Shown here: in pieces, positions 3,848 through 34,937 of the stretch | Position numbering within the stretch: the stretch's first letter is position 1 | Layout: the number at the start of each line of letters is the position of its first letter | Source of the DNA: a virus | Length of the DNA: 40,507 nt | Virus genome (UHGV): UHGV-0094371 | Direction: 5' to 3' (one strand) | Translations under genes and position numbers: made by a program | The notes under the pieces: model-generated | Databases searched by the model: none | What the model was told of the DNA's origin: nothing | The model's input: only the letters and a program-made list of their open reading frames with translations

Positions 3848-4566
3848 GTTTCACCTGCCATTACATCTTTATAGCGAACGATCTTCATTGTGCGCTCCTG
3901 CCAGTATCCGCCATAAGGAACACGTTGACTCAGATGCCCGTAAAGATGGTGCAGCAGCATGTTACCCTCCAGTAAAATCCCGGCATGATTCCACTTATCG
4001 GCCTGCACCTGCATGATGACGAGGTCCCCTTCCTGAGGCGGACCATCAAACTCCCTGAATCCGCACTCGTACCAGCACTCCTGATAGAAATTGTCCGGGT
4101 AGTCGTTTTCCCACCAGGGATAATCCACCCGGTAATCGTGGAGCTCGATACAGTGGGTCTGCCGGAAATAGCTCATTACCAGCCCCCAGCAGTCGAAGTG
4201 TCCAAGCACAAACGGACGCTCCAGCAGTGGCAGTTCTCCGCGCGGCTGGATGGTGCGTAAATCCCCCTCCGGCCAGCTCACAATATGCCAGGGTAAAAGC
4301 GTTGCGTCGCATTGCGCTTTATCCAGTTCGCTCGGCTGCGTAGTGGCGTCAGGGTGACTGTGAACGATGGCGATCACCGTACCCCAGTCCTCAGCAGCTG
4401 CATAGTCTTCTGGCGACAGGTGAAAATGTTCTGTCGGCTCGGTAGCGAGGTTACTACATGGAAAATATTTCTCTACCCGGCTCTTTTGCGCCACCACGCC
4501 GCAACACTCACGAGGATATTCAGCTGCAGCATGCGCCATAATCGCATCGATGGTTTTCTGACGCAT
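3835..4566 (-). CDS. K: tail assembly protein K (JAMM/MPN plus NlpC/P60 domains)
   Basis: 243 aa; JAMM-type HSHPdattqpSelD motif visible; conserved position between L and I. Confidence 0.85.
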   Translation of the reverse strand: MRQKTIDAIMAHAAAEYPRECCGVVAQKSRVEKYFPCSNLATEPTEHFHLSPEDYAAAEDWGTVIAIVHSHPDATTQPSELDKAQCDATLLPWHIVSWPEGDLRTIQPRGELPLLERPFVLGHFDCWGLVMSYFRQTHCIELHDYRVDYPWWENDYPDNFYQECWYECGFREFDGPPQEGDLVIMQVQADKWNHAGILLEGNMLLHHLYGHLSQRVPYGGYWQERTMKIVRYKDVMAGETCRK

Positions 4567-4567
4567 A

Positions 4568-5323
4568 TCAACTCCTGATCAGCGACGTACCCTGGAACCC
4601 ACCAAACGAGAGTTCGTTGTTTTCACCGAACCGAAGTTTGCAGGCCGTCAGCGTTCCGTTGCATTCATCCAGTGACGGATCGCTTACCTGGTTGTTGTTT
4701 TTGTCGAAATAGCGCGTACCGGCATAGTCGCAGCCGTCGCCGGTTCGGTACTTGTTCCGGATGCACCATGTGCACAGAGAATGAAGCTGGCGGGTAGGTA
4801 TCATCAGCCCCTGCAGATCCATAGGGCTGGATAGTGTGAACTCAACAACTTCATTGGTTTCACTGCTCTTTGCATCGATGTAGAAAACCTTCAGCTTCTC
4901 CTGGGTCGGATCGGCTGTCGGATTGCCTCCGGTGAAGTTTCTCGCATCGAGATACTTACCAAGGGTGTCATGTATCGTCACCTTCGCCTGCAGCATATCG
5001 TCATACGCCAGACAGAGCGCTGAGATCGAGCTGTCCAGGTTCGCCACACTCAGTTTTGGCTGTGGACTGGTACCGTCCGTAGTCGCTTCAATACCCTCAA
5101 CCTGACACGGCCAGGCTTTATACTCCTCCCCCTGCCACCAGATGGACTTCGCCGGAAGTTTATTCTCATCCCCGCCTGCAGCCTCAATCTCTTCCGGGGT
5201 ATGCGCGATATTATGTGCGTGGAAGCGGAGTACATCTGACATACCGAACGCTGTGCCATCGACAGAAAAAAGCCGGACTTCATTGCCCGGCTCGAGTTTT
5301 TGATAATCAGCATTAAGACTCAT
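4568..5323 (-). CDS. L: minor tail protein L
   Basis: 251 aa; Cys-rich C-terminus (CTWCIR...DGCDYAG...CNGTLTAC) as in lambda L; synteny. Confidence 0.85.
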   Translation of the reverse strand: MSLNADYQKLEPGNEVRLFSVDGTAFGMSDVLRFHAHNIAHTPEEIEAAGGDENKLPAKSIWWQGEEYKAWPCQVEGIEATTDGTSPQPKLSVANLDSSISALCLAYDDMLQAKVTIHDTLGKYLDARNFTGGNPTADPTQEKLKVFYIDAKSSETNEVVEFTLSSPMDLQGLMIPTRQLHSLCTWCIRNKYRTGDGCDYAGTRYFDKNNNQVSDPSLDECNGTLTACKLRFGENNELSFGGFQGTSLIRS

Positions 5324-27020: not shown

Positions 27021-27514
27021 TAAGCCCCCACGTAATTCCCTGACAGATACCACTCTTCACCCGATGCAGCGCGCTTGCTGCTTTTCCGTAAACACCGTTC
27101 ACGACGCGCCAGAAAATTGTTTCGTTCTGGCTGGGAGTGGCTTTCACGGAATGCCTCCATCCACACCGTTGCAGCACGACGGTATAAGCCCCTCGACTCC
27201 AGTTCTTCAGCCTGGCGGGTCAGGCACAAAATCACCCGGGGGGCGTTAGTGCCGACATAGAACTTGCGCACAGGTCTGGTTTCACAAACTGGTTGTGGTT
27301 CCGGCTCCTGCGCTCTCTCAGTCAGGCGCGAGAAATGTCTGCGTGTATCTCCTTCACAACGGTGAGCCACACGCCCACTCTGACGTAACTTGCTTGCTGA
27401 CTGCAGAACGCGCTGCCGTGAGTAACCTGCAAAAGCATCCGCAATGTCTCCGGAAGTACACCCCGGATGGGCTTCAATGAATTTCTGAACTTCATTCAAA
27501 AGACTCATGATCAC
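27020..27514 (-). CDS. putative PerC/Pch-family transcriptional regulator
   Basis: 164 aa; C-terminal LESRGLYRRAATVWMEAF...RRERCL resembles the PerC/Pch signature as recalled. Confidence 0.45.
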   Translation of the reverse strand: MIMSLLNEVQKFIEAHPGCTSGDIADAFAGYSRQRVLQSASKLRQSGRVAHRCEGDTRRHFSRLTERAQEPEPQPVCETRPVRKFYVGTNAPRVILCLTRQAEELESRGLYRRAATVWMEAFRESHSQPERNNFLARRERCLRKSSKRAASGEEWYLSGNYVGA

Positions 27515-28452
27515 CCCCTGAATCCTGCCGGGATCTGGCTGTAGTCCACGTTGTCGTAACTGGATTTGAAGTACGGATCTTCACGTTTTTCTGTGTATGT
27601 GCTGACGGACGGCGATAAGCGCAGGGAAAGCTCATCCCATTTTTCCCGCAGCTTCGACGGGCTGAGCACGTTACGGCACCAGAACGGATCGCGGCTGACG
27701 CGGCTGTACATCTCGCAGATTTGTTTGTGAGTACGACCATCCTGCACACACATCAGGCGAATTTCGTTTGCCCAGGCTGTCCAGTTCGGTTCTTTGGGAC
27801 GAACCACCTCGCCGTCACATTCGGCAGCCTGCTCGTACAGGGCGATGATTTTTTTCCAGAGCCACTGTGCGCAGGTCAAATCATCCTGCGTCCCCCACTG
27901 GCGTTTTTTAGGGCTGAATACAACCGCATCAGGATGGCGAGTTAAAAAATCCTGTTCAGCCGTCTGCGTGTCCGGTTGCGAAGCGTCCGGACGAGAAGGT
28001 TTTTTATCTGACGGATCATGTTTTGATTTTACTGACGGATCCCCGCCAGATTCTGACGGGTGAAAACCCGCTTTTTTGCCAGATTTCGACGCATCAAATT
28101 TTGACGGGTCAGATTTTGATGCGTCAGATTTTGACGGGTCAGAATCTGACAGTTGAGAAAATGCCGCTGCCTGAAGCTTCGCAACGTTAAGCTGATAAAC
28201 ATTCGACGCATTGCGGTTACCCTGGCGACGCGCCTTACGCGTTAACCAGCCTTCTGCTTCCAGCCGTGCGATAGCCGTTCTGACGGTACTCATCCCCGCG
28301 CCAATCTGGCGGGCAATGGTTTCAATTGATGGCCAGCACACACCTTCGTCATTACTGAAATCAGCCAGGCGGGCCATAATTGCCACGCTGGATAATTTCA
28401 TGCCTGACGCTGCGCAACCATCCCATACATAGCCGGTTAATTTAGTGCTCAT
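27511..28452 (-). CDS. replication initiator (lambda O-like); N-terminal HTH, repeat linker, C-terminal domain
   Basis: 313 aa; lambda O position after cro/CII-like; iteron array inside the gene; SKSD peptide repeats. Confidence 0.65.
   Translation of the reverse strand: MSTKLTGYVWDGCAASGMKLSSVAIMARLADFSNDEGVCWPSIETIARQIGAGMSTVRTAIARLEAEGWLTRKARRQGNRNASNVYQLNVAKLQAAAFSQLSDSDPSKSDASKSDPSKFDASKSGKKAGFHPSESGGDPSVKSKHDPSDKKPSRPDASQPDTQTAEQDFLTRHPDAVVFSPKKRQWGTQDDLTCAQWLWKKIIALYEQAAECDGEVVRPKEPNWTAWANEIRLMCVQDGRTHKQICEMYSRVSRDPFWCRNVLSPSKLREKWDELSLRLSPSVSTYTEKREDPYFKSSYDNVDYSQIPAGFRG
28006..28155 (-). repeat. ori-like iteron array: about 8 imperfect direct repeats of (A)GATTTTGACGGGTC, the last five spaced exactly 15 bp apart
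   Basis: repeat units at 28006, 28030, 28050, 28084, 28099, 28114, 28129 and 28144. Confidence 0.65.
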
Positions 28453-28461
28453 GACCGACCT

Positions 28462-28800
28462 CTATTTCCCTGAATTTACGACGAAACTGTTCGAGCGGAC
28501 TGAAGCACTCATACTCATAGCCTTCGCGGAGGTAGATAACCCGTTGTGTTTCCGGTTCCCAACGAATGACTCTGACGGGCACTCCGTAGTGATCTTTGAA
28601 CCAGCGGTTAACTTGTCGCAAAGGACTGTCTCCTTCTGCCGGTTGAAATCACCCACAGCCCACTCTGCAAAGCTGTGGGTTACAATTACCCTGTCACCTG
28701 GTACATTTACTGCATAGCAATACTCCACCTTCGCTTTTCCACCCGGTACAGGAAGCGCAATCAGTTGCGAGCGACGGTAGTGTGTTGTTAAACTGTTCAT
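28462..28800 (-). CDS. hypothetical protein (112 aa)
   Basis: ATGA start/stop overlap with the upstream CII-like gene; no family recognised. Confidence 0.4.
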
Positions 28801-29348
28801 GCGTTAGTTTCTCCACAGTCACGACACGCCACGGCGCCCGGAGCTGCACACTCGCGGGCGTCACTACTTTCTGAAACGCAAAAGATTTTGTAGACCAGTG
28901 CTGCATGCTCCTGCAGCTTCGAAATTGAGAGGTACAGCTCATCGTTAATTGCTGTCTTCTCATGCGGTTCCACTACACCGTCTTCAATTGCTGAACGAAT
29001 CTGTTTTGAATAACTGCCGATCTGTTCAATGACCTCCAGCAGGCGTTGGTTGATATCGGCGTTGTCCACATCCTCGATGTCAGGAAGAGACACAAATACG
29101 CCATTTGCAGACTGCGCCACAGCATCAGCAATGAAGTGAGTGCCACCAGCACGCTGTAAAACCATTGCCCATCCCAGCGGGAAAATCTGATCGCCATCTG
29201 CACGAAGGCGGTTGAATAAAGCGTTTTCTGTTACATCGAGCCAATCAGCCGCTTCAGCGTAACCACCCGGCAACGCCGCGATAGTTTTTCTGACAGCTTT
29301 CACGTACCACTCAGGCTGTTTTTCTATTTTCCAGTGATGCTTACCCAC
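28797..29348 (-). CDS. putative CII-like regulator (YdaT / CP76-like)
   Basis: 183 aa directly downstream of cro; family assignment from memory only. Confidence 0.4.
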
Positions 29349-29601
29349 GGTTCACCTCCTGTTCCTGTGGTTTAAACCCATTCTGGTTTTGGCTAGATTG
29401 AAAACGTGCCGGATAAAGAATCTGCATTTCGCTGATTTCACCCTTAAAAAAATTGGCTAAACGTTCTGCAAGCTCGATAGATGGAATCTGCTCCAGCCTC
29501 TCAATACGACTCAACGTCGCTGGATTGACTTGAACACCCGCAGCAACATGCTGCAAAGTGAAACCATGCGCCTTACGCACATTTCGTAATGGTGATTGCA
29601 T
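29341..29601 (-). CDS. cro: Cro-like HTH (XRE family) repressor
   Basis: 86 aa; HTH (FTLQHVAAGVQVNPATLSRIE); divergent from cI across a 97-bp operator region. Confidence 0.75.
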   Translation of the reverse strand: MQSPLRNVRKAHGFTLQHVAAGVQVNPATLSRIERLEQIPSIELAERLANFFKGEISEMQILYPARFQSSQNQNGFKPQEQEVNRG

Positions 29602-29698
29602 ATATCCTCCAAATATTGCGCGTTATGCATGTTATTTCACGCAAGTATTTTGCGCAAGTTGATTTGCTTATCACGCAATAAAGAAATGTAATAAACGC
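29602..29698. promoter_or_regulatory. cI-cro divergent promoter/operator region with two inverted-repeat sites (TTGCGYG-N15-CRCGCAA) and an 8-bp perfect palindrome TTGCGCAA
   Basis: half-sites at 29616-22 / 29638-44 and 29650-57 / 29672-78. Confidence 0.55.
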
Positions 29699-30391
29699 AT
29701 GAACATAGGAAAACGAGTCAGACAACTTCGCCAAGCGAAGAACATGAAAATCGCCGATCTCGCTGAAGCAATAGGAGTAGATGCGGCGAACATCTCGCGC
29801 TTAGAAACGGGTAAGCAGAAACAATTTACCGAACAAACACTGAGTAATATTGCCAAGAGCTTAGGTGTTGATATTGCTGATCTCTTTACCTCTGCCCTCA
29901 AAAGTAATACTGTATATAAAAACAGTAATGATGAGGATGTTGCGCAGGTGAAGGATGTGTTCCGTATTGAAATGTTGGATATCAGTGCCAGTGCGGGAAA
30001 TGGCCTTATCCAGGGCGGTGATGTCATTGATGTGATTCATGCCATCGAATACAGAACTGATAATGCTGTATCAATGTTCGGCGGACGACCAGCCAATCAC
30101 ATCAAAGTTATCAACGTTCGTGGGGACAGTATGTGTCCAACCATTGAGCCAGGAGATCTCATCTTCGTTGATGTCAGCATCAATCAGTTTGATGGTGATG
30201 GTATATATGTCTTTGGTTTTGATGACAAAATATACGTTAAAAGACTTCAAATGATTCCTGACAAACTGCTGGTGATTTCTGATAACCAGATTTACCGTGA
30301 ATGGGGAATTACTAGCGAAAACGAACACCGATTCATGGTCTTTGGAAAGGTCTTAATCAGTCAGTCGCAAACCCTTAAGAGACATAATTAA
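29699..30391 (+). CDS. cI: CI-type prophage repressor (N-terminal HTH plus C-terminal S24 LexA-like peptidase)
   Basis: 230 aa; HTH IADLAEAIGVDAANISRLE; S24 motifs RGDSMCPTIEPGDL and YVKRL. Confidence 0.9.
   Translation: MNIGKRVRQLRQAKNMKIADLAEAIGVDAANISRLETGKQKQFTEQTLSNIAKSLGVDIADLFTSALKSNTVYKNSNDEDVAQVKDVFRIEMLDISASAGNGLIQGGDVIDVIHAIEYRTDNAVSMFGGRPANHIKVINVRGDSMCPTIEPGDLIFVDVSINQFDGDGIYVFGFDDKIYVKRLQMIPDKLLVISDNQIYREWGITSENEHRFMVFGKVLISQSQTLKRHN
29908..29927. promoter_or_regulatory. near-consensus LexA (SOS) box TACTGTATATAAAAACAGTA inside the cI coding sequence
   Basis: CTGT-N8-ACAG with flanking TA/TA; 2 mismatches to TACTGTATATATATACAGTA, both in the AT spacer. Confidence 0.5.
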
Positions 30392-30410
30392 CTTCAATAT
30401 CCCATCCATC

Positions 30411-30433
30411 GGCCACCGAAAGGTGGCTTTTTA
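30411..30433 (+). terminator. intrinsic terminator after cI (GCCACC-GAAA-GGTGGC then T5)
   Basis: direct reading, 20 nt after the cI stop. Confidence 0.65.
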
Positions 30434-30683
30434 TCACCCATAATTTTGCACATCTCGCAAAATATTACTTGCGTATATCGCATTTTAATTTTATCTTTTG
30501 TTCCAGACCAACTACAGGATTACAACAAAATCTAGTTGCAACACGGTGCATGGTGCATGTGTCGTAAGCGGTCAGTAATTGTCAAAAACGAACAGTCAGG
30601 ACGACCACGAAGTAGCCGCCGGTGGCGTATGAATGACCGGATGATTCGCTGACAGAAAACTTAGGTTGGGGGTAGAGGTTTAC

Positions 30684-31049
30684 ATGAATCATTTATTCAC
30701 ATGCTCATTTTGCGGAGCAACCGAACTGGGAGCGATAAAGATCGTCGCAAAAGGTGGTAAGGACGAACCTGCCATCTGTTCGGAATGCGTAGTCACATGT
30801 GTAGAAAAAATGATCCTGACTAAAAAATCAGAGGCTGAAAAACCAACCTCTGATAACGAAATAATATCAGTCGATAAAAAACTATTTAAAGAGCTTCTTC
30901 AGCTTGTCCTCAACCATCCTGATTTCGGAAGTAAGCTGGCTGCTGTTGACATTGATAGTAGCTCCACATCGACAAGTGAAACTTTTGTTCGACTTGAGCC
31001 AAGCGATTTTCTTCTTCGTCTTAGTGCCGCACTTAGGGCATGCGGGTAA
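30684..31049 (+). CDS. stand-alone ClpX-type C4 zinc-finger (ZBD-like) protein
   Basis: 121 aa from the ATG at 30684 (GAGG RBS 6 nt upstream); CSFCG-x20-CSEC resembles the ClpX N-terminal zinc-binding domain as recalled. Confidence 0.55.
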   Translation: MNHLFTCSFCGATELGAIKIVAKGGKDEPAICSECVVTCVEKMILTKKSEAEKPTSDNEIISVDKKLFKELLQLVLNHPDFGSKLAAVDIDSSSTSTSETFVRLEPSDFLLRLSAALRACG

Positions 31050-31079
31050 CGTAATTTCCTGGTTATCAAAAGCGCCCAT
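30882..31079 (-). CDS. hypothetical zinc-ribbon protein (65 aa), antisense to the 3' end of the ClpX-ZBD ORF
   Basis: CPKCG...CRCG zinc ribbon; AGAGGG RBS 7 nt upstream of the 31079 ATG; one of the two overlapping ORFs may be spurious. Confidence 0.35.
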   Translation of the reverse strand: MGAFDNQEITLPACPKCGTKTKKKIAWLKSNKSFTCRCGATINVNSSQLTSEIRMVEDKLKKLFK

Positions 31080-31227
31080 AAACATCCCTCTTGGTTGTGT
31101 GAGAACACCAAGATACCACCGCGCCTGATGTGGTTAAAAGCAGGCTAAAGCAATAACAAGTAACTCCCTGTTCTGGCGGCCCGGTGTTTTCCCGTGTATT
31201 TCCGGTAACCGCCAGCCTTTTTCAGGG

Positions 31228-31339
31228 CACAACAGAAAAGGGCATCACCGGGCGACGGGCTCATAACCCAATCCACCCGGGCAAAAAGAAAGCGGTCTCT
31301 GCAAGCCGCCGACCAATGCAGGTGCCCTTCTCTGTTGTG
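31228..31339. repeat. 17-bp inverted repeat (cacaacagaaaagggca / tgcccttctctgttgtg, 1 mismatch) with a 78-nt spacer
   Basis: arms at 31228-31244 and 31323-31339. Confidence 0.5.
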
Positions 31340-31496
31340 TATGGAGAAACTAACTTTTTAGCGCCGGTGCAGAGGCGTTGAGGAACCGAGAATGAACAAT
31401 CCGTTTTTCAAAAATATGGGGTATTCGGGATAAGTAGTTGTTGAAGACCTTTTGCACAGATCTGCAATTCATTTTTATAGACGGTGAAAGTTGTTG

Positions 31497-31525
31497 TTGA
31501 CCTCCTGATCGGATTCCTATAGTGT
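31497..31525 (+). promoter_or_regulatory. candidate early-left promoter (TTGACC-N17-TAGTGT)
   Basis: hexamers read directly; a weak hairpin plus T6 lies at about 31569-31594. Confidence 0.3.
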
Positions 31526-31630
31526 TTGTCTCACGAGGCGTCGAAACCTCTTCTCAGTGCGGTCAGAACCAACCCCGACAGTGTTGGCTTTTTTATGTCT
31601 GTCATTCAGTGAACGCATAGCGCGGTCACA

Positions 31631-31734
31631 TCCCGATCAATGTCGGGAGGGCGACTAATACAACACCCTTACGGGGAATAAGTCCGCGGTCTCACTGAGC
31701 CGTTTCGAACCTCCCGGCACCACTCCGATAGTGG
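31631..31734 (+). promoter_or_regulatory. structured leader upstream of the KilA-N gene with mutually exclusive pairings
   Basis: segment tcgggagg (31643-50) can pair with tcccga (31631-36) or with cctcccggca (31710-19, 10 bp with one G-U); a further hairpin at 31720-34. Confidence 0.35.
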
Positions 31735-31761
31735 TAATTCGAAAAAATCAGTGAGGTCATT

Positions 31762-32622
31762 ATGACTACCCAAATCATCATCTCCGATATCTCTATCCAT
31801 CAGGATTCAAAAGGTCGTTATTCAATCAACGATCTGCATAAAGCTGCTGGCGCTGAACATCGCCACCTGCCTAACTACTGGCTTGAACTACAGCAGACCA
31901 AAGAGTTAATCGAAGAGATTCTAAATACCGGAATCCCGGTAATTAACCCTCCGGTAGCCAGCAGAAAGGGCCGTTACGGTGGCACCTACGTATGCAAAGA
32001 GTTGGTTTACTCCTACGCCATGTGGATCAGCGCCGCTTTTGCACTCAAGGTGATCCGGGCATATGACGCGCTGGTATCTGGCAATGTGGAAGTGAAGCCA
32101 AAGGTTCGCCAGTGTACGGCAACCCAACTCACCCCGCTGCGCCAAACAGCAGAACGGTTAATCACAACTGGCCTCGGCAAAATCTATCCCGACATCTGGA
32201 AGCTGGTTCATCAGCGCTTCGATGTTGAGCATATCCACCAGTTGCAGCCTGAGCAGGTCGGTGAAGCCATCGAGTACCTGAACGTGCTGGAAGGTGAGTA
32301 CCTGGGGCGCGAGACACTTCCGGCAACCCCATCAGTGCATTTCACCAACGAGGAGCTTTGCGCTCTCTGCTGGGTATGGAATGCCGCCGAATACATGCGG
32401 GAGAAGATAGAGCTGGCCTATCCCGCAATGAAAACTCTCAAGTCTGAATACGCACCGAGCTTCTACTCAATGGCATTTGAGTATCAGCGAACACTGGAAG
32501 CCGGTAGAAAGGTTCTCGAACGGGAAACAAAACACATCGTTCCTCATCCTCACAGCGTGTCAGATGAAAACTGGCGGCGAGTCCTGCCTCGTCTGCGCCA
32601 AAATAGCTTACCTCGCGGATAA
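31762..32622 (+). CDS. KilA-N domain protein (paralogue of 25479-26288)
   Basis: 286 aa; GRYSINDLHKAA...GTYVCKELVYSYAMWISAAFALKVIR. Confidence 0.7.
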   Translation: MTTQIIISDISIHQDSKGRYSINDLHKAAGAEHRHLPNYWLELQQTKELIEEILNTGIPVINPPVASRKGRYGGTYVCKELVYSYAMWISAAFALKVIRAYDALVSGNVEVKPKVRQCTATQLTPLRQTAERLITTGLGKIYPDIWKLVHQRFDVEHIHQLQPEQVGEAIEYLNVLEGEYLGRETLPATPSVHFTNEELCALCWVWNAAEYMREKIELAYPAMKTLKSEYAPSFYSMAFEYQRTLEAGRKVLERETKHIVPHPHSVSDENWRRVLPRLRQNSLPRG

Positions 32623-32636
32623 TAAGGGACAAAACG

Positions 32637-33959
32637 ATGAGCGAGATTGCACCAACGAGCCTGTTACACCCTCTGAAAGCTACCGTTCTGGATTTTCAGG
32701 AGGATGAGCACGACTATCAGTTCAAGGTTGAATACCCGGAGCCGACCTGCTGCCATGCCTGCGGTGCAGTGTCTGACATCATCCGCTTTAACAAAAAGCT
32801 GGTGAAGTACCGGGATGTTCCCATGCACGGGAAGCGCGTCACGCTCTGGGTCGTAACACGCCGTTATCAGTGCAAATCATGCAAAGGCACATTCACCCCG
32901 GCCATCCCCGAGATGGCCGAAGCCCACCGCATGACAAAGCGCTGCTATCAGTACATCATTAAACGTGCGCTGACCGGCACTAACGCCAGCGTCGCGCAAG
33001 ATGTTGGCTTTGATGAGTCCGTCACCCGTGGGGTCATCAAGTCCTACTGCGAGCAAAAGGCGAAGACCTATAAGCCTGTGCTGCCGCGAGTGCTGGGCAT
33101 TGATGAGCTGTACCTGAACAAAACCTTCCGCTGTGTCCTGACCAACATCGAGCAGGGAACCATTATTGACATACTGGAATCCCGGCAAAGTAACGTCATC
33201 TACAACCGTCTGGCGCATATGGAAGGCCGTGAGAACGTGCAGATCGTCTGTCAGGATATGTGGAAGCCATACCGTGACGTTGCCAGCCAGCTATTCCCTA
33301 AAGCCAGCATCGTCGTTGACCGCTTCCATATCCAGCGCATGGCTAACGAGGCGATGGAAACGCTGCGTAAGTCGCTCAAAAAGGATCTGACAGTACACCA
33401 CCGACGGCAGCTTAAAGGCGACCGTAAGATGATGTTGATGCGTAAGCGTGACCTTAACCCTATGCAGCAGATGATTATCGAAACGTGGCTGGATCACTAT
33501 CCTGAGTTGGGTCTGGCCTATCAGCTCAAGGAAGAGTTCTTTGATATCTGGCTGGCACAGACTGAACCTGAGGCCAGAATGCGCTATCAGAACTGGCTGG
33601 CAAAGATACCCGATCATCATAAAAAGCACTGGAAGCCGCTGATAACATCCATGACGAACTGGGAGAAAGAGATATTCGCCTACTTCGGCCCGGCCCAGCG
33701 GAAGACCAACGCCTTTACGGAATCCATCAACCGCAAGATGCGCGATCTGAACCGTGATTCGCGCGGAATGTCCTTTGAGATGTTCAGGGCTAAAACACTG
33801 TTCACTCTCAAGCATAAGTTCAGCAAGCCTAAACCAGTGAAAGAATCACCGTTCACGGTTGGCTATGTCACCGCTGGTTCGTGGGATCTGGATGATGAAA
33901 TCCGGGACGATTACGGCGTATCTATCGACGCTATTCTGGAATCCAAAATCGGCGAATAA
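32637..33959 (+). CDS. ISL3-family DDE transposase homologue (zinc ribbon plus DDE domain), with no terminal inverted repeats found
   Basis: 440 aa; N-terminal CCHACG...CKSCKG; LGIDE, VCQDMWKPY, DRFHI and TNAFTESINRKMRDLNR motifs resemble the ISL3 signature as recalled; starts 15 nt after the KilA-N stop. Confidence 0.6.
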   Translation: MSEIAPTSLLHPLKATVLDFQEDEHDYQFKVEYPEPTCCHACGAVSDIIRFNKKLVKYRDVPMHGKRVTLWVVTRRYQCKSCKGTFTPAIPEMAEAHRMTKRCYQYIIKRALTGTNASVAQDVGFDESVTRGVIKSYCEQKAKTYKPVLPRVLGIDELYLNKTFRCVLTNIEQGTIIDILESRQSNVIYNRLAHMEGRENVQIVCQDMWKPYRDVASQLFPKASIVVDRFHIQRMANEAMETLRKSLKKDLTVHHRRQLKGDRKMMLMRKRDLNPMQQMIIETWLDHYPELGLAYQLKEEFFDIWLAQTEPEARMRYQNWLAKIPDHHKKHWKPLITSMTNWEKEIFAYFGPAQRKTNAFTESINRKMRDLNRDSRGMSFEMFRAKTLFTLKHKFSKPKPVKESPFTVGYVTAGSWDLDDEIRDDYGVSIDAILESKIGE

Positions 33960-34043: not shown

Positions 34044-34937
34044 ATGTTGGTGTATCGCATTAGTCGCGATTTCACCATCAACCAGGAAGAGCTGGAACAG
34101 CAGCTTGAACTATTTCGCTTCACTCCATGCGGTAGCCAGGATATGGCAAAAACCGGTTGGGTATCACCACTTGGTCAGCTGTCAGATCGCTTGCATCACA
34201 CTGTCAATAATCAAGTGTTGTTGGTTATTCGCCGGGAAGAAAAAATACTGCCATCTCCTGTCATTGCTGAAGAACTGCGCAAGCGTGTGTCGCGTCTGGA
34301 ATCCGATCAGGGGCGTCGCCTCAAAAAAACTGAGAAAGATTCGCTGCGTGATGAAGTGTTGCACTCCCTGCTTCCTCGGGCGTTCTCCAAAAACTCGACT
34401 GTTAGTTTGTGGATCAACGTCACCGACGGTCTGATCATGGTTGATGCAGCCAGCGCTAAACGTGCCGAAGACTCACTGGCCCTGCTTCGTAAAACTCTCG
34501 GTTCTCTCCCGGTGGTACCGCTGACTATGGAAACGCCGATCGAACTAACTATGACCGAATGGGTTCGTTCCGGTAGTGCGCCTGCTGGCTTTGGGCTGGG
34601 TGATGAAGCCGAACTGAAAGCCATTCTTGAAAATGGCGGTATCGGACGCTTTAAAAAACAGGCTCTGGTCAGCGACGAAATTCATGTGCATCTGGAAGCT
34701 GGCAAAGTAGTTACAAAGCTGTCTATCGACTGGCAACAGCGCATTCAGTTCGTTCTTTGCGATGACGGCAGCATCAAGCGCCTTAAGTTCTCTGATGAGC
34801 TGACAGAACAAAACGACGATATCGACCGTGAGGATGCGGCTCAGCGGTTCGACGCTGACTTTGTTCTGATGACCGGCGAGCTTATCTCTCTCATTAACGG
34901 ATTAACAACCTCTCTCGGCGGCGAAGCCAAGCGATAA
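34044..34937 (+). CDS. rdgC: recombination-associated protein RdgC homologue
   Basis: 297 aa; collinear with E. coli RdgC as recalled ([47 protein letters not shown]...LGGEA). Confidence 0.85.

Follow-up and report, generated by a model that had tools for sequence, protein, structure and literature searches.

The DNA that follows the cI-type repressor gene of the viral genome UHGV-0094371 (40,507 nucleotides, referred to throughout as the window) raises the question of whether one stretch of duplex encodes two proteins and, if so, when each is made and what it does. The window is a lambdoid prophage with an immunity region of the e14/CPS-53/SfII type. On its plus strand, an open reading frame (ORF) for 121 amino acids spans positions 30684–31049 (ATG at 30684, TAA at 31047–31049) and is preceded by a Shine-Dalgarno (SD) sequence, GAGG, 5 nt upstream; an alternative TTG start at 30666 would give 127 residues. 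Convergent with it on the minus strand lies an ORF for 65 amino acids (30882–31079, ATG at 31079, TAG at 30882–30884), with the SD sequence AGAGGG 6 nt upstream and a length of 67 residues if the ATG at 31085 is used. Its product, here called ZR for zinc ribbon, carries the knuckles CPKCG and CRCG and a C-terminal basic helix. A first-pass annotation of the locus had described such a convergent zinc-ribbon ORF overlapping its partner by 168 bp, and this is confirmed (30882–31049). The two ORFs appear to form an antiparallel, codon-complementary overlapping gene pair with which the early-left (PL) operon of an e14/SfII-like prophage begins, and the anatomy as a whole, which combines a dual-coding pair, the first position behind PL and homology of the plus-strand protein to ClpX's zinc-binding domain (ZBD), is in our judgement probable.

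Purifying selection in both frames of the overlap

Within the overlap each codon of one ORF is the exact reverse complement of a codon in the other, with ZR position 1 facing plus-frame position 3, the second positions facing each other and ZR position 3 facing plus-frame position 1. Across the 16 distinct enterobacterial sequences the alignment has no gaps and neither ORF is ever disrupted, and ZR is likewise unbroken, apart from a single frameshift, at the 33 loci coding for a full-length ZR relative. Parsimony steps per site at plus-frame positions 1, 2 and 3 were 1.5, 1.0 and 3.2 in the part unique to the plus ORF and 2.0, 0.44 and 1.0 in the part unique to ZR. In the overlap they were 1.41 (plus position 1, ZR position 3), 0.41 (second position of both) and 1.0 (plus position 3, ZR position 1), that is, each of the three positions showed the slower of the two flank rates. 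The plus-frame junction E-x-I-S/T-V/I-D-K, about 10 codons lying 5' of the overlap and within the 3' untranslated region of ZR, varies at third positions, with Ser codons that switch between TCN and AGY, and the 9 ZR codons past the plus-frame stop change mostly at ZR third positions.

Following the site-class argument of PMC4316641, the 152 substitutions inferred by parsimony were classed by their effect on the plus frame and on ZR, in that order, as synonymous (S) or nonsynonymous (N). The rates relative to opportunity were 6.7 for SS (16 substitutions), 1.85 for NS (64), 0.84 for SN (32) and 0.58 for NN (40). The resulting ratio of nonsynonymous to synonymous rates, omega, is ~0.12 for ZR (p = 3e-8) and ~0.28 for the plus frame (binomial p = 1.5e-4), and the alternative estimate for ZR, NN/NS, is 0.32 (p = 3e-9). 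In both frames, amino-acid changes scored where they are silent in the other frame were more conservative than expected at random (p = 0.0026 and 0.0009). Simulations in which only one frame was under selection left the other open throughout the 16 leaves in no more than 1 of 300 runs, and none of the 300 reached the observed ratios.

Codon usage was also considered. Plus-frame stops in the shared register correspond to the ZR codons TTA, CTA and TCA. With the ZR protein and the local codon usage taken as fixed, the plus frame would be open with a joint probability of 1e-16 over 17 lineages and ~1e-10 over the 11 lineages ascertained via ZR only (the latter recomputed by hand from the per-lineage values), with individual probabilities of 0.008–0.014 in the AT-rich lineages. 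Lys codons of ZR are invariably AAG, which reads as Leu in the plus frame; AAA, the commoner Lys codon in E. coli, would give Phe. Leu codons of the plus frame are, for their part, almost all CTT or CTC, as the Lys and Glu codons of ZR require. Neither ORF is a chance ORF, and both frames are under purifying selection, ZR strongly and the plus-frame tail more weakly. ZR is the better conserved of the two (77 versus 69% and 66 versus 56%; 0.88 versus 0.71 in distant pairs).

Distribution and natural variants of the pair

Loci were ascertained independently through ZR and through the tail of the plus protein, and the two sets agree. Among the intact loci, in which ZR identity falls to as low as 37% and GC content ranges from 0.32 to 0.66, both frames are open and in the same register in every copy. 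ZR identity exceeds plus-frame identity in all distant pairs, and ZR is constrained there (SN/SS 0.13, p = 0.004). The extent of the plus frame varies: it stops 30 nt inside ZR in the enterobacterial e14-like prophages, it reads through the ZR start in distant lineages, and in some distant loci the plus ORF is little more than the antisense of ZR. The surroundings vary as well, with the pair adjoining cI-like repressors in loci L054, L085 and L094, lying near replication genes in L089 and L096 and, in L082 (IMG/VR 2897721305_000005), sitting outside the immunity region with the terminase large subunit gene on one side and the head genes on the other. Since the genomic contexts differ, the pair seems to travel as a unit, in the manner of a moron.

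Several natural variants were found. A 1-nt deletion in the IMG/VR contig L036 destroys both frames at once, and in another IMG/VR contig, L032, Cys 36 of ZR is replaced by Tyr, a change that reads as Thr to Ile in the plus frame. In L093 and L097 one of the four zinc-ribbon cysteines is missing in each and the plus frame is still open. With the exception of these last three loci, most ZR homologues keep all four cysteines, the second knuckle being sometimes CxxC.

The minus-strand gene and its signals

On the minus strand, an intrinsic terminator with a 12-bp stem followed by TTTTTT lies at 30827–30854, 28 nt past the ZR stop and within the linker codons of the plus gene. Its RNA folds with -22 kcal/mol, and it is kept in the closer lineages, other hairpins being found in more distant ones. 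Upstream of ZR, alignment and consensus folding define a conserved 5' leader of ~70 nt with two hairpins (31080–31150, minus strand), the second of which, TCTTGG...CCAAGA, abuts the SD sequence AAGAGGG and shows two compensatory pairs in K-12 e14. The leader, which 2382 of 5426 complete E. coli genomes contain, precedes other cargo too, namely ymfI in K-12 e14 (L048, 2483–2572) and a gene for 63 amino acids in strain 730V1 (L001, 5700–5780), which suggests that it is a generic leader of minus-strand cassettes. A partial copy adjoins ydfC in a Rac/Qin-like region.

Further upstream, the minus strand of 31160–31345 is predicted to form a strongly structured RNA (-109 kcal/mol, z = -4.2) containing a 17-nt inverted repeat (31228–31244 and 31323–31339) and, at 31216–31228, the boxB-like sequence GCCCTGAAAAAGG, which we take to be identical to the boxB of lambda nutR. 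The structured region is specific to the window and the Nissle lineage. A role of GCCCTGAAAAAGG as nutL was rejected, as the sequence is on the strand opposite that of the PL transcript and is lineage-specific. Two candidate signals for ZR transcription were likewise set aside: the lone promoter-like match on the minus strand (30890–30861) runs straight into the minus-strand terminator, and a TTGC-N6-TTGC motif of the lambda CII type located 5' of the leader is not conserved in other lineages.

An AlphaFold2 (AF2) model of ZR computed from the single sequence shows a zinc ribbon followed by a C-terminal helix with a mean predicted local distance difference test (pLDDT) score of 75, and 81–85 in the core. 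Foldseek with this model returned generic ribosomal-type zinc ribbons and one uncharacterised phage protein (template modelling score 0.74). With ZR as the query, Pfam, PHROGs, NCBIfam, PADLOC and PDB sequences yielded sub-threshold zinc ribbons only, among them Lar (17.3 bits, cut-off 28.6), Com (14.6 bits, cut-off 22.9) and YnfU (17 bits, cut-off 36). The first-pass annotation had suggested profile searches for both proteins, and of these the one with the plus protein recovered the ClpX ZBD family just under the Pfam cut-off, as described below, and the one with ZR stayed below the thresholds of the zinc-ribbon families. The basic, Lys-rich knuckle region and the amphipathic C-terminal helix of the model would suit binding to nucleic acid or to protein. 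A literature search found no description of ZR or of the antisense cassette.

Gene callers and RefSeq annotate the plus ORF alone, and ZR has been called in just one cluster, with 4 member sequences on one contig. Because gene callers rarely call ZR, a protein search returned only the identical cluster, and the ZR loci were found by six-frame and pattern searches instead. The annotation record is the one observation in favour of the view that the plus ORF alone is real and ZR a shadow ORF, a view that we consider highly implausible. It is contradicted by the omega of ZR given above, by the retention of four cysteines in most homologues, by the conserved SD sequence and leader, by wobble variation in the ZR frame in its unique N-terminus, by the confident zinc ribbon in the single-sequence model and by the restriction of plus-frame Leu codons to those that ZR requires. 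ZR is accordingly best described as a predicted genuine gene with its own, ideally spaced SD sequence, a conserved leader and a terminator.

The plus-strand protein: a ClpX-type domain joined to a shared tail

The first-pass annotation had read the N-terminus of the plus protein as a ClpX-type zinc finger with the motif CSFCG-x20-CSEC and no AAA+ module, and this reading is well borne out. The ZBD comprises residues 4–42 (30693–30809), followed by a linker (residues 43–57) and a conserved tail module (residues ~58–121; 30855–31046). The cysteines fall in the order C7-S-F-C10-G, 20 residues, C32-S-E-C35, and all four are invariant across five phage ZBDs (CxxC...CxxC, with the signatures CSFCG and ICxECV). 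Residues 6–41 match Pfam PF06689 (zf-C4_ClpX) with E 7.6e-6 and 26.2 bits, the cut-off being 27.0. A PDB search with the single sequence gave, at E <= 1, only ClpX ZBDs, with weak scores (E 0.17–0.81), and with a profile built from the five phage ZBDs the top 7 matches were all ClpX ZBDs, the best being 2DS5 (E 1.2e-7), ahead of the next unrelated match at E 0.036. The source database lists PF06689 for the 98%-identical protein P0001, and the 98%-identical copies in E. coli bear the RefSeq name 'ClpX C4-type zinc finger protein'; one of these, in E. coli Nissle 1917 (L003), lies 3' of a different cI. No AAA+ module is present in the 121 residues, and the NCBIfam ClpX models are covered only from 6 to 74 of 418 positions, with 21 bits against a cut-off of 359. 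PHROG 20296 matches the protein over its full length (2.5e-68) and PHROG 5259 matches the ZBD alone; both are of unknown function. The N-terminus is, judging from these profile comparisons, homologous to the ClpX ZBD. A literature search turned up nothing on ClpX zinc fingers that stand alone in phages, though RefSeq names such proteins.

A protein search with the 121-residue query showed that the last ~65 residues recur on unrelated N-termini, of which at least 7 modules can be told apart. The tail is common to P0004–P0008 and P0012–P0021, and its partners include an AlpA-type helix-turn-helix (HTH; P0004), a P22_Y8K6 domain (P0006), coiled coils (P0005 and P0008), a 231-residue protein (L030) and short leaders (P0007). 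An exhaustive search added P0017, a second, divergent fusion of a ZBD to the tail (44% identity, PF06689 with 25.9 bits). Wherever the neighbourhood could be read (P0004, P0006 and P0008), the tail protein is the first gene after cI, and every tail-fusion locus carries an intact ZR on the opposite strand, as the better conserved frame. Stand-alone ZBD proteins of 66–82 residues without the tail occupy the same slot. The C-terminus is a constant, shared module under dual-coding constraint that is joined in frame to varied N-terminal modules.

Several findings weigh against the dual-coding anatomy set out above. The alternative estimate of omega for the plus frame, NN/SN, is 0.70 (p = 0.08), indicating a weakly constrained tail; the doubly synonymous sites number only ~8–10, which makes the neutral reference small; and in the distant pairs the plus-frame ratio NS/SS of 0.51 is not significant. 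No convincing -35/-10 elements of a sigma-70 promoter for ZR were detected by consensus scan or by alignment of 11 upstream regions, and the cassette is known from sequence alone. One alternative is that only ZR is functional, the plus gene encoding a ZBD protein of ~55 residues that reads on through the antisense of ZR into a translated but functionless tail. Such an arrangement would agree with ZR being always the better conserved frame, with the commonest substitution class being the one that is synonymous in ZR and nonsynonymous in the plus frame, with the tail-less ZBD proteins of the same slot, with the low AF2 confidence of the tail and with those distant loci where the plus ORF is nearly a mere antisense of ZR. 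It does not agree with a plus frame that is open in every intact lineage against an expectation of 1e-10 to 1e-16 and in at most 1 of 300 simulations, with ZR-synonymous sites that change at 0.28 of the doubly synonymous rate (p = 1.5e-4), with the in-frame attachment of at least 7 N-modules at a junction outside ZR whose protein sequence is conserved, or with the invariable use of AAG for Lys in ZR. On this balance we regard the ZR-only alternative as unlikely and retain the dual-coding pair.

Predicted position of the plus gene in the early-left operon

The plus gene does lie downstream of cI and its terminator, as the first-pass annotation had stated: cI ends at 30391, and its transcript meets an intrinsic terminator, GGCCACC-GAAA-GGTGGC followed by TTTTT, at 30411–30435 on the plus strand. 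The same annotation had placed the gene in the slot that rexAB or sieB occupies elsewhere, an assignment that fails, as operators and a PL-like promoter (30446–30497) precede the gene. The spacer of 290 bp between cI and the gene contains two operator-like palindromes, TTGCACATCTCGCAA (30446–30460) and TTGCGTATATCGCAT (30469–30483), which resemble OL operators and match the OR sites TTGCTTATCACGCAA (29664–29678) and TTGCGCGTTATGCAT (29616–29630). The second of them overlaps a candidate PL promoter, TTGCGT-N17-TATCTT (30469–30497, plus strand), that was read from the sequence and was not reported by a consensus promoter scan of the window.

Comparison of OR with the post-cI spacer gives a modest excess in the window itself (3 matches, where shuffled sequences averaged 0.4 and reached at most 3). 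The cI–cro intergenic region was compared with the post-cI spacer in six loci with different repressors, and in all six the OR palindromes recur past the cI terminator, where they overlap a plausible rightward promoter. The matches in the five further immunity types include exact 15-mers. The post-cI operator is an exact AATACCGCAAGTATT in L008 and an exact TCTAAGTTAATTTAGAT in L044, and in Nissle the operator CTACTTA(T/A)AGTAG is located within TTGCAA-N18-TATAGT. In K-12 e14 the terminator is followed by TTGACA-N17-TAATGT with CohE-type operators. The argument for a PL slot in the window is made because the design recurs across immunity types, and not from the statistic of the window alone.

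Between the candidate promoter and the gene, cross-locus alignment revealed a PL leader core of 60 nt (30589–30648, plus strand) with the hairpin CCGGT...ACCGG and the sequence CGAACAG.CAGGACG.CCACGAAGTAGCCGCCGGTGGC...ACCGGATGATTCG. This core is near-invariant 5' of four different first genes (encoding the ZBD-tail protein, the AlpA-tail protein, a short ZBD protein and K-12 YmfJ) and is common to several immunity types (the window, L003, L006, L001 and L048); it could be a processing, antitermination or regulatory site. An Arg-rich ORF for 38 amino acids in the leader (30536–30652) was considered as an N-like peptide and rejected, its start not being conserved and its substitutions not being codon-like.

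Because the terminator, the operators and the PL-like promoter separate it from cI, the plus gene is predicted to be the first gene of the cI-repressed early-left operon, in the slot held by ymfJ in e14. In K-12, ymfJ of e14 is induced late in the SOS response (log2 fold change 4.8) together with genes of the PR operon, and the YmfJ protein has been detected (PMC11002266). The first-pass annotation had instead pictured a moron expressed in the lysogen from the rexAB/sieB position, whose free ZBD would titrate ClpX adaptors or substrates and thereby stabilise prophage proteins or exclude superinfecting phages. The gene does adjoin cI on the same strand, and a free ZBD does compete in vitro (PMC7226468), but in each of the six immunity types examined a terminator, operators and a PL-type promoter separate the gene from cI, ymfJ, its slot homologue in e14, is not switched on until a late stage of the SOS response (PMC11002266), a search of defence-system models gave no matches, and the partner expressed in the lysogen, if there is one, is more likely to be ZR, which has its own leader. 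The plus gene is not a moron co-transcribed with cI, and the moron model as a whole is quite improbable.

Possible functions of the pair

The ClpX ZBD offers a guide to what the plus protein may do. Lambda O, SspB, RssB and trigger factor bind to a hydrophobic pocket of this domain to which F16 belongs, and the degradation of lambda O needs the ZBD (PMC7804408). The ClpX ZBD is a constitutive dimer, and when added in trans at 5–20 uM the isolated domain inhibits RssB-mediated degradation of sigmaS in vitro (PMC7226468). Pairwise alignment to ClpX ZBDs shows the F16 equivalent to be kept as F9, the Phe of CSFCG.

In the mechanism that we put forward, cI would shut off PL in the lysogen and the ZBD-tail protein would be made only after induction or infection, as e14 ymfJ suggests, with ZR presumably transcribed convergently from the minus strand. 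Transcriptional collision, together with pairing of sense and antisense RNA over at least 168 nt, would largely prevent the two products from being made together, in the manner of an excludon. The ZBD would dimerise and bind the ligands of ClpX's own ZBD, either adaptor motifs of the XB type or N-domain-dependent substrates such as a replication initiator, the tail would supply a second interaction, and the protein would in this way transiently divert the specificity of ClpXP early in lytic growth. That the plus protein competes for ClpX-ZBD ligands at this stage is a tentative proposal made by analogy; it is favoured because the free ZBD inhibits RssB-dependent degradation (PMC7226468) and the ZBD is required for lambda O (PMC7804408). 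The notion of the free ZBD as a decoy, already raised in the first-pass annotation, is speculation.

Four more findings count against the overall reading, the ClpX-directed role included. The Pfam score of the ZBD lies 0.8 bit under the gathering cut-off; the equivalent of I46, a residue of the client-binding pocket of ClpX, is Lys 42 in the plus protein; an AF2 model of the 121-residue protein based on a 10-sequence alignment reached a pLDDT of only 58.7, too low for a fold search; and the variant in the same slot with an AlpA HTH joined to the tail would suit a regulatory function independent of ClpX no less well. The plus protein may accordingly be an early regulator with no link to ClpX, an analogue of lambda N in which the ZBD is a dimerisation or nucleic-acid-binding head, interchangeable with AlpA-type HTH domains or coiled coils, and the tail contacts the target, for example the transcription or replication machinery. 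This possibility is comparably likely to the ClpX-competitor model. It is consistent with the AlpA HTH, coiled-coil and P22_Y8K6 N-termini that share the slot and the tail, with the first position behind PL and the conserved PL leader, with the constitutive dimerisation of the ClpX ZBD (PMC7226468) and with the lack of conservation at the I46 equivalent. On the other hand, no terminators or nut-like target sites were identified, the sole boxB-like sequence being on the wrong strand; the two divergent ZBD versions both keep the CSFCG Phe of the ClpX client pocket; and the tail has no similarity to N, to Q or to any DNA- or RNA-binding family.

A broader view, which we hold just as tentatively as the ClpX-competitor model, is that the pair is an ancient, mobile toggle that makes two functional proteins from one duplex of ~200 bp, ZR during repression of the phage and the antisense partner once PL is active. 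The overlap itself would then be the regulatory device, and the partners could not be separated by recombination. The N-modules (ZBD, AlpA HTH and coiled coils) would be interchangeable targeting heads on a constant effector tail, and the partner found in the window would carry a ClpX docking finger that redirects host ClpXP.

Other features of the immunity region

The cI-type repressor (29699–30391, plus strand) combines an HTH with a Peptidase_S24 domain (Pfam Peptidase_S24, 6e-19; HTH_3, 1e-11), and the cI region is 96% identical to that of SfII. On the minus strand lie cro (29341–29601) and a gene resembling CII (CP76) and YmfL (28797–29348). An HTH_36 protein, counted among the phage replication proteins, is encoded at 27511–28452. 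An Rfam search matched no known RNA family in 30392–31100, and the sole match in 29300–32000 is a full-length one to sRNA-Xcc1 (RF02221) at 31642–31726 on the plus strand (70.4 bits, gathering score 53, E 3.9e-12). This match sits immediately 5' of an antirepressor-like gene with KilA-N and P22AR_C domains (31762–32622, plus strand), the product of which also matches the PADLOC candidate defence model PDC-S22 over residues 65–105 (E 8.9e-10). An ISL3-family transposase gene (32637–33959, plus strand; DDE_Tnp_ISL3, 3e-59, plus Zn_ribbon_ISL3) separates the KilA-N gene from rdgC (34044–34937) within the early-left operon; in Nissle 1917 rdgC follows directly after the ZBD gene.

Two other prophages whose cI is the same as or related to that of the window carry different minus-strand genes in the post-cI space, namely a gene for a 170-residue protein with a hydrophobic N-terminus in L002 (E. 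coli SCU-101, 4107–4619) and one for a 293-residue protein with a weak BRCT match in L005 (3914–4795). The cI-proximal spacer is therefore seen as a hotspot for the insertion of cargo.

Significance

Very few pairs of antisense overlapping protein-coding genes have good support, and they are contested; the cassette adds a small, statistically robust pair that spans widely different phages. Single-base mutations can abolish either partner and remain silent in the other, and the prophage copy in Nissle 1917 (98% identity) is an accessible test system for expression and knock-out data. If the ClpX-competitor model were true, a free ClpX docking domain encoded by the first early-left gene of a phage would be a new route by which host proteolysis is re-programmed. 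For annotation, the implication is that gene callers systematically miss ZR and that what is recorded as the C-terminal domain of the plus protein is a hidden gene's by-product or partner. The arrangement of leader and slot that is common to the cassette and K-12 ymfI/ymfJ occurs in ~44% of complete E. coli genomes.

Comparison with known systems

The plus protein shares with the ClpX ZBD (PF06689; PDB 1OVX and 2DS5–2DS8) the C4 treble-clef motif CSFCG...IC(S/D)ECV and differs from it in a 3-residue insertion between the knuckles; unlike ClpX, it lacks the AAA+ ATPase, is fused to an unrelated tail of 65 residues and is encoded by a phage. ZR, for its part, is a C4 zinc ribbon of ~60 residues from an early-left or moron region, as are Lar/RalR (PF14354), YnfU (NF038384) and Com of phage Mu (PF10122), but the similarity is weak and sub-threshold (E 0.003–0.02), far below the family cut-offs.

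Like rexA–rexB of lambda and sieB, the plus gene is a neighbour of cI. However, rexAB lies between cI and OL/PL and is co-transcribed with cI in the lysogen, whereas the plus gene lies beyond the terminator and OL/PL, and its product has no sequence similarity to RexA–RexB or SieB. Lambda RexB reportedly protects lambda O from ClpP-dependent degradation, a point that speaks for the moron model.

A close parallel in organisation is that of ymfJ and ymfI in K-12 e14, which occupy the identical slot after a cI-like repressor (cohE/ymfK) with an operator-controlled PL and the same PL leader, and which include a convergent, overlapping minus-strand gene with the same conserved leader. Both e14 proteins are unrelated in sequence to those of the cassette, and the e14 overlap, unlike that of the cassette, is just 63 nt long, with nothing that indicates dual-coding constraint. 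ymfI–ymfJ has been listed as a convergent excludon on the basis of RNA sequencing (PMC12288877).

Antisense overlapping genes have been proposed in bacteria, in enterohaemorrhagic E. coli EDL933 and in Pseudomonas aeruginosa (PMC9927249, PMC8850804), and the published cases are few and mostly young ORFs within long, old genes (PMC9927249, PMC8850804, PMC7457138). In the EDL933 and P. aeruginosa cases, as here, opposite-strand ORFs share DNA and the argument is made from purifying selection in both frames. Unlike those pairs, the partners of the cassette are small, similar in size and in an exact codon-complementary register; and unlike the published antisense cases, they are conserved together and mobile as a unit, and are known here solely through sequence comparison. 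Antisense overlapping genes as such are already known, if rare, and among them the cassette stands out for unusually strong comparative support.

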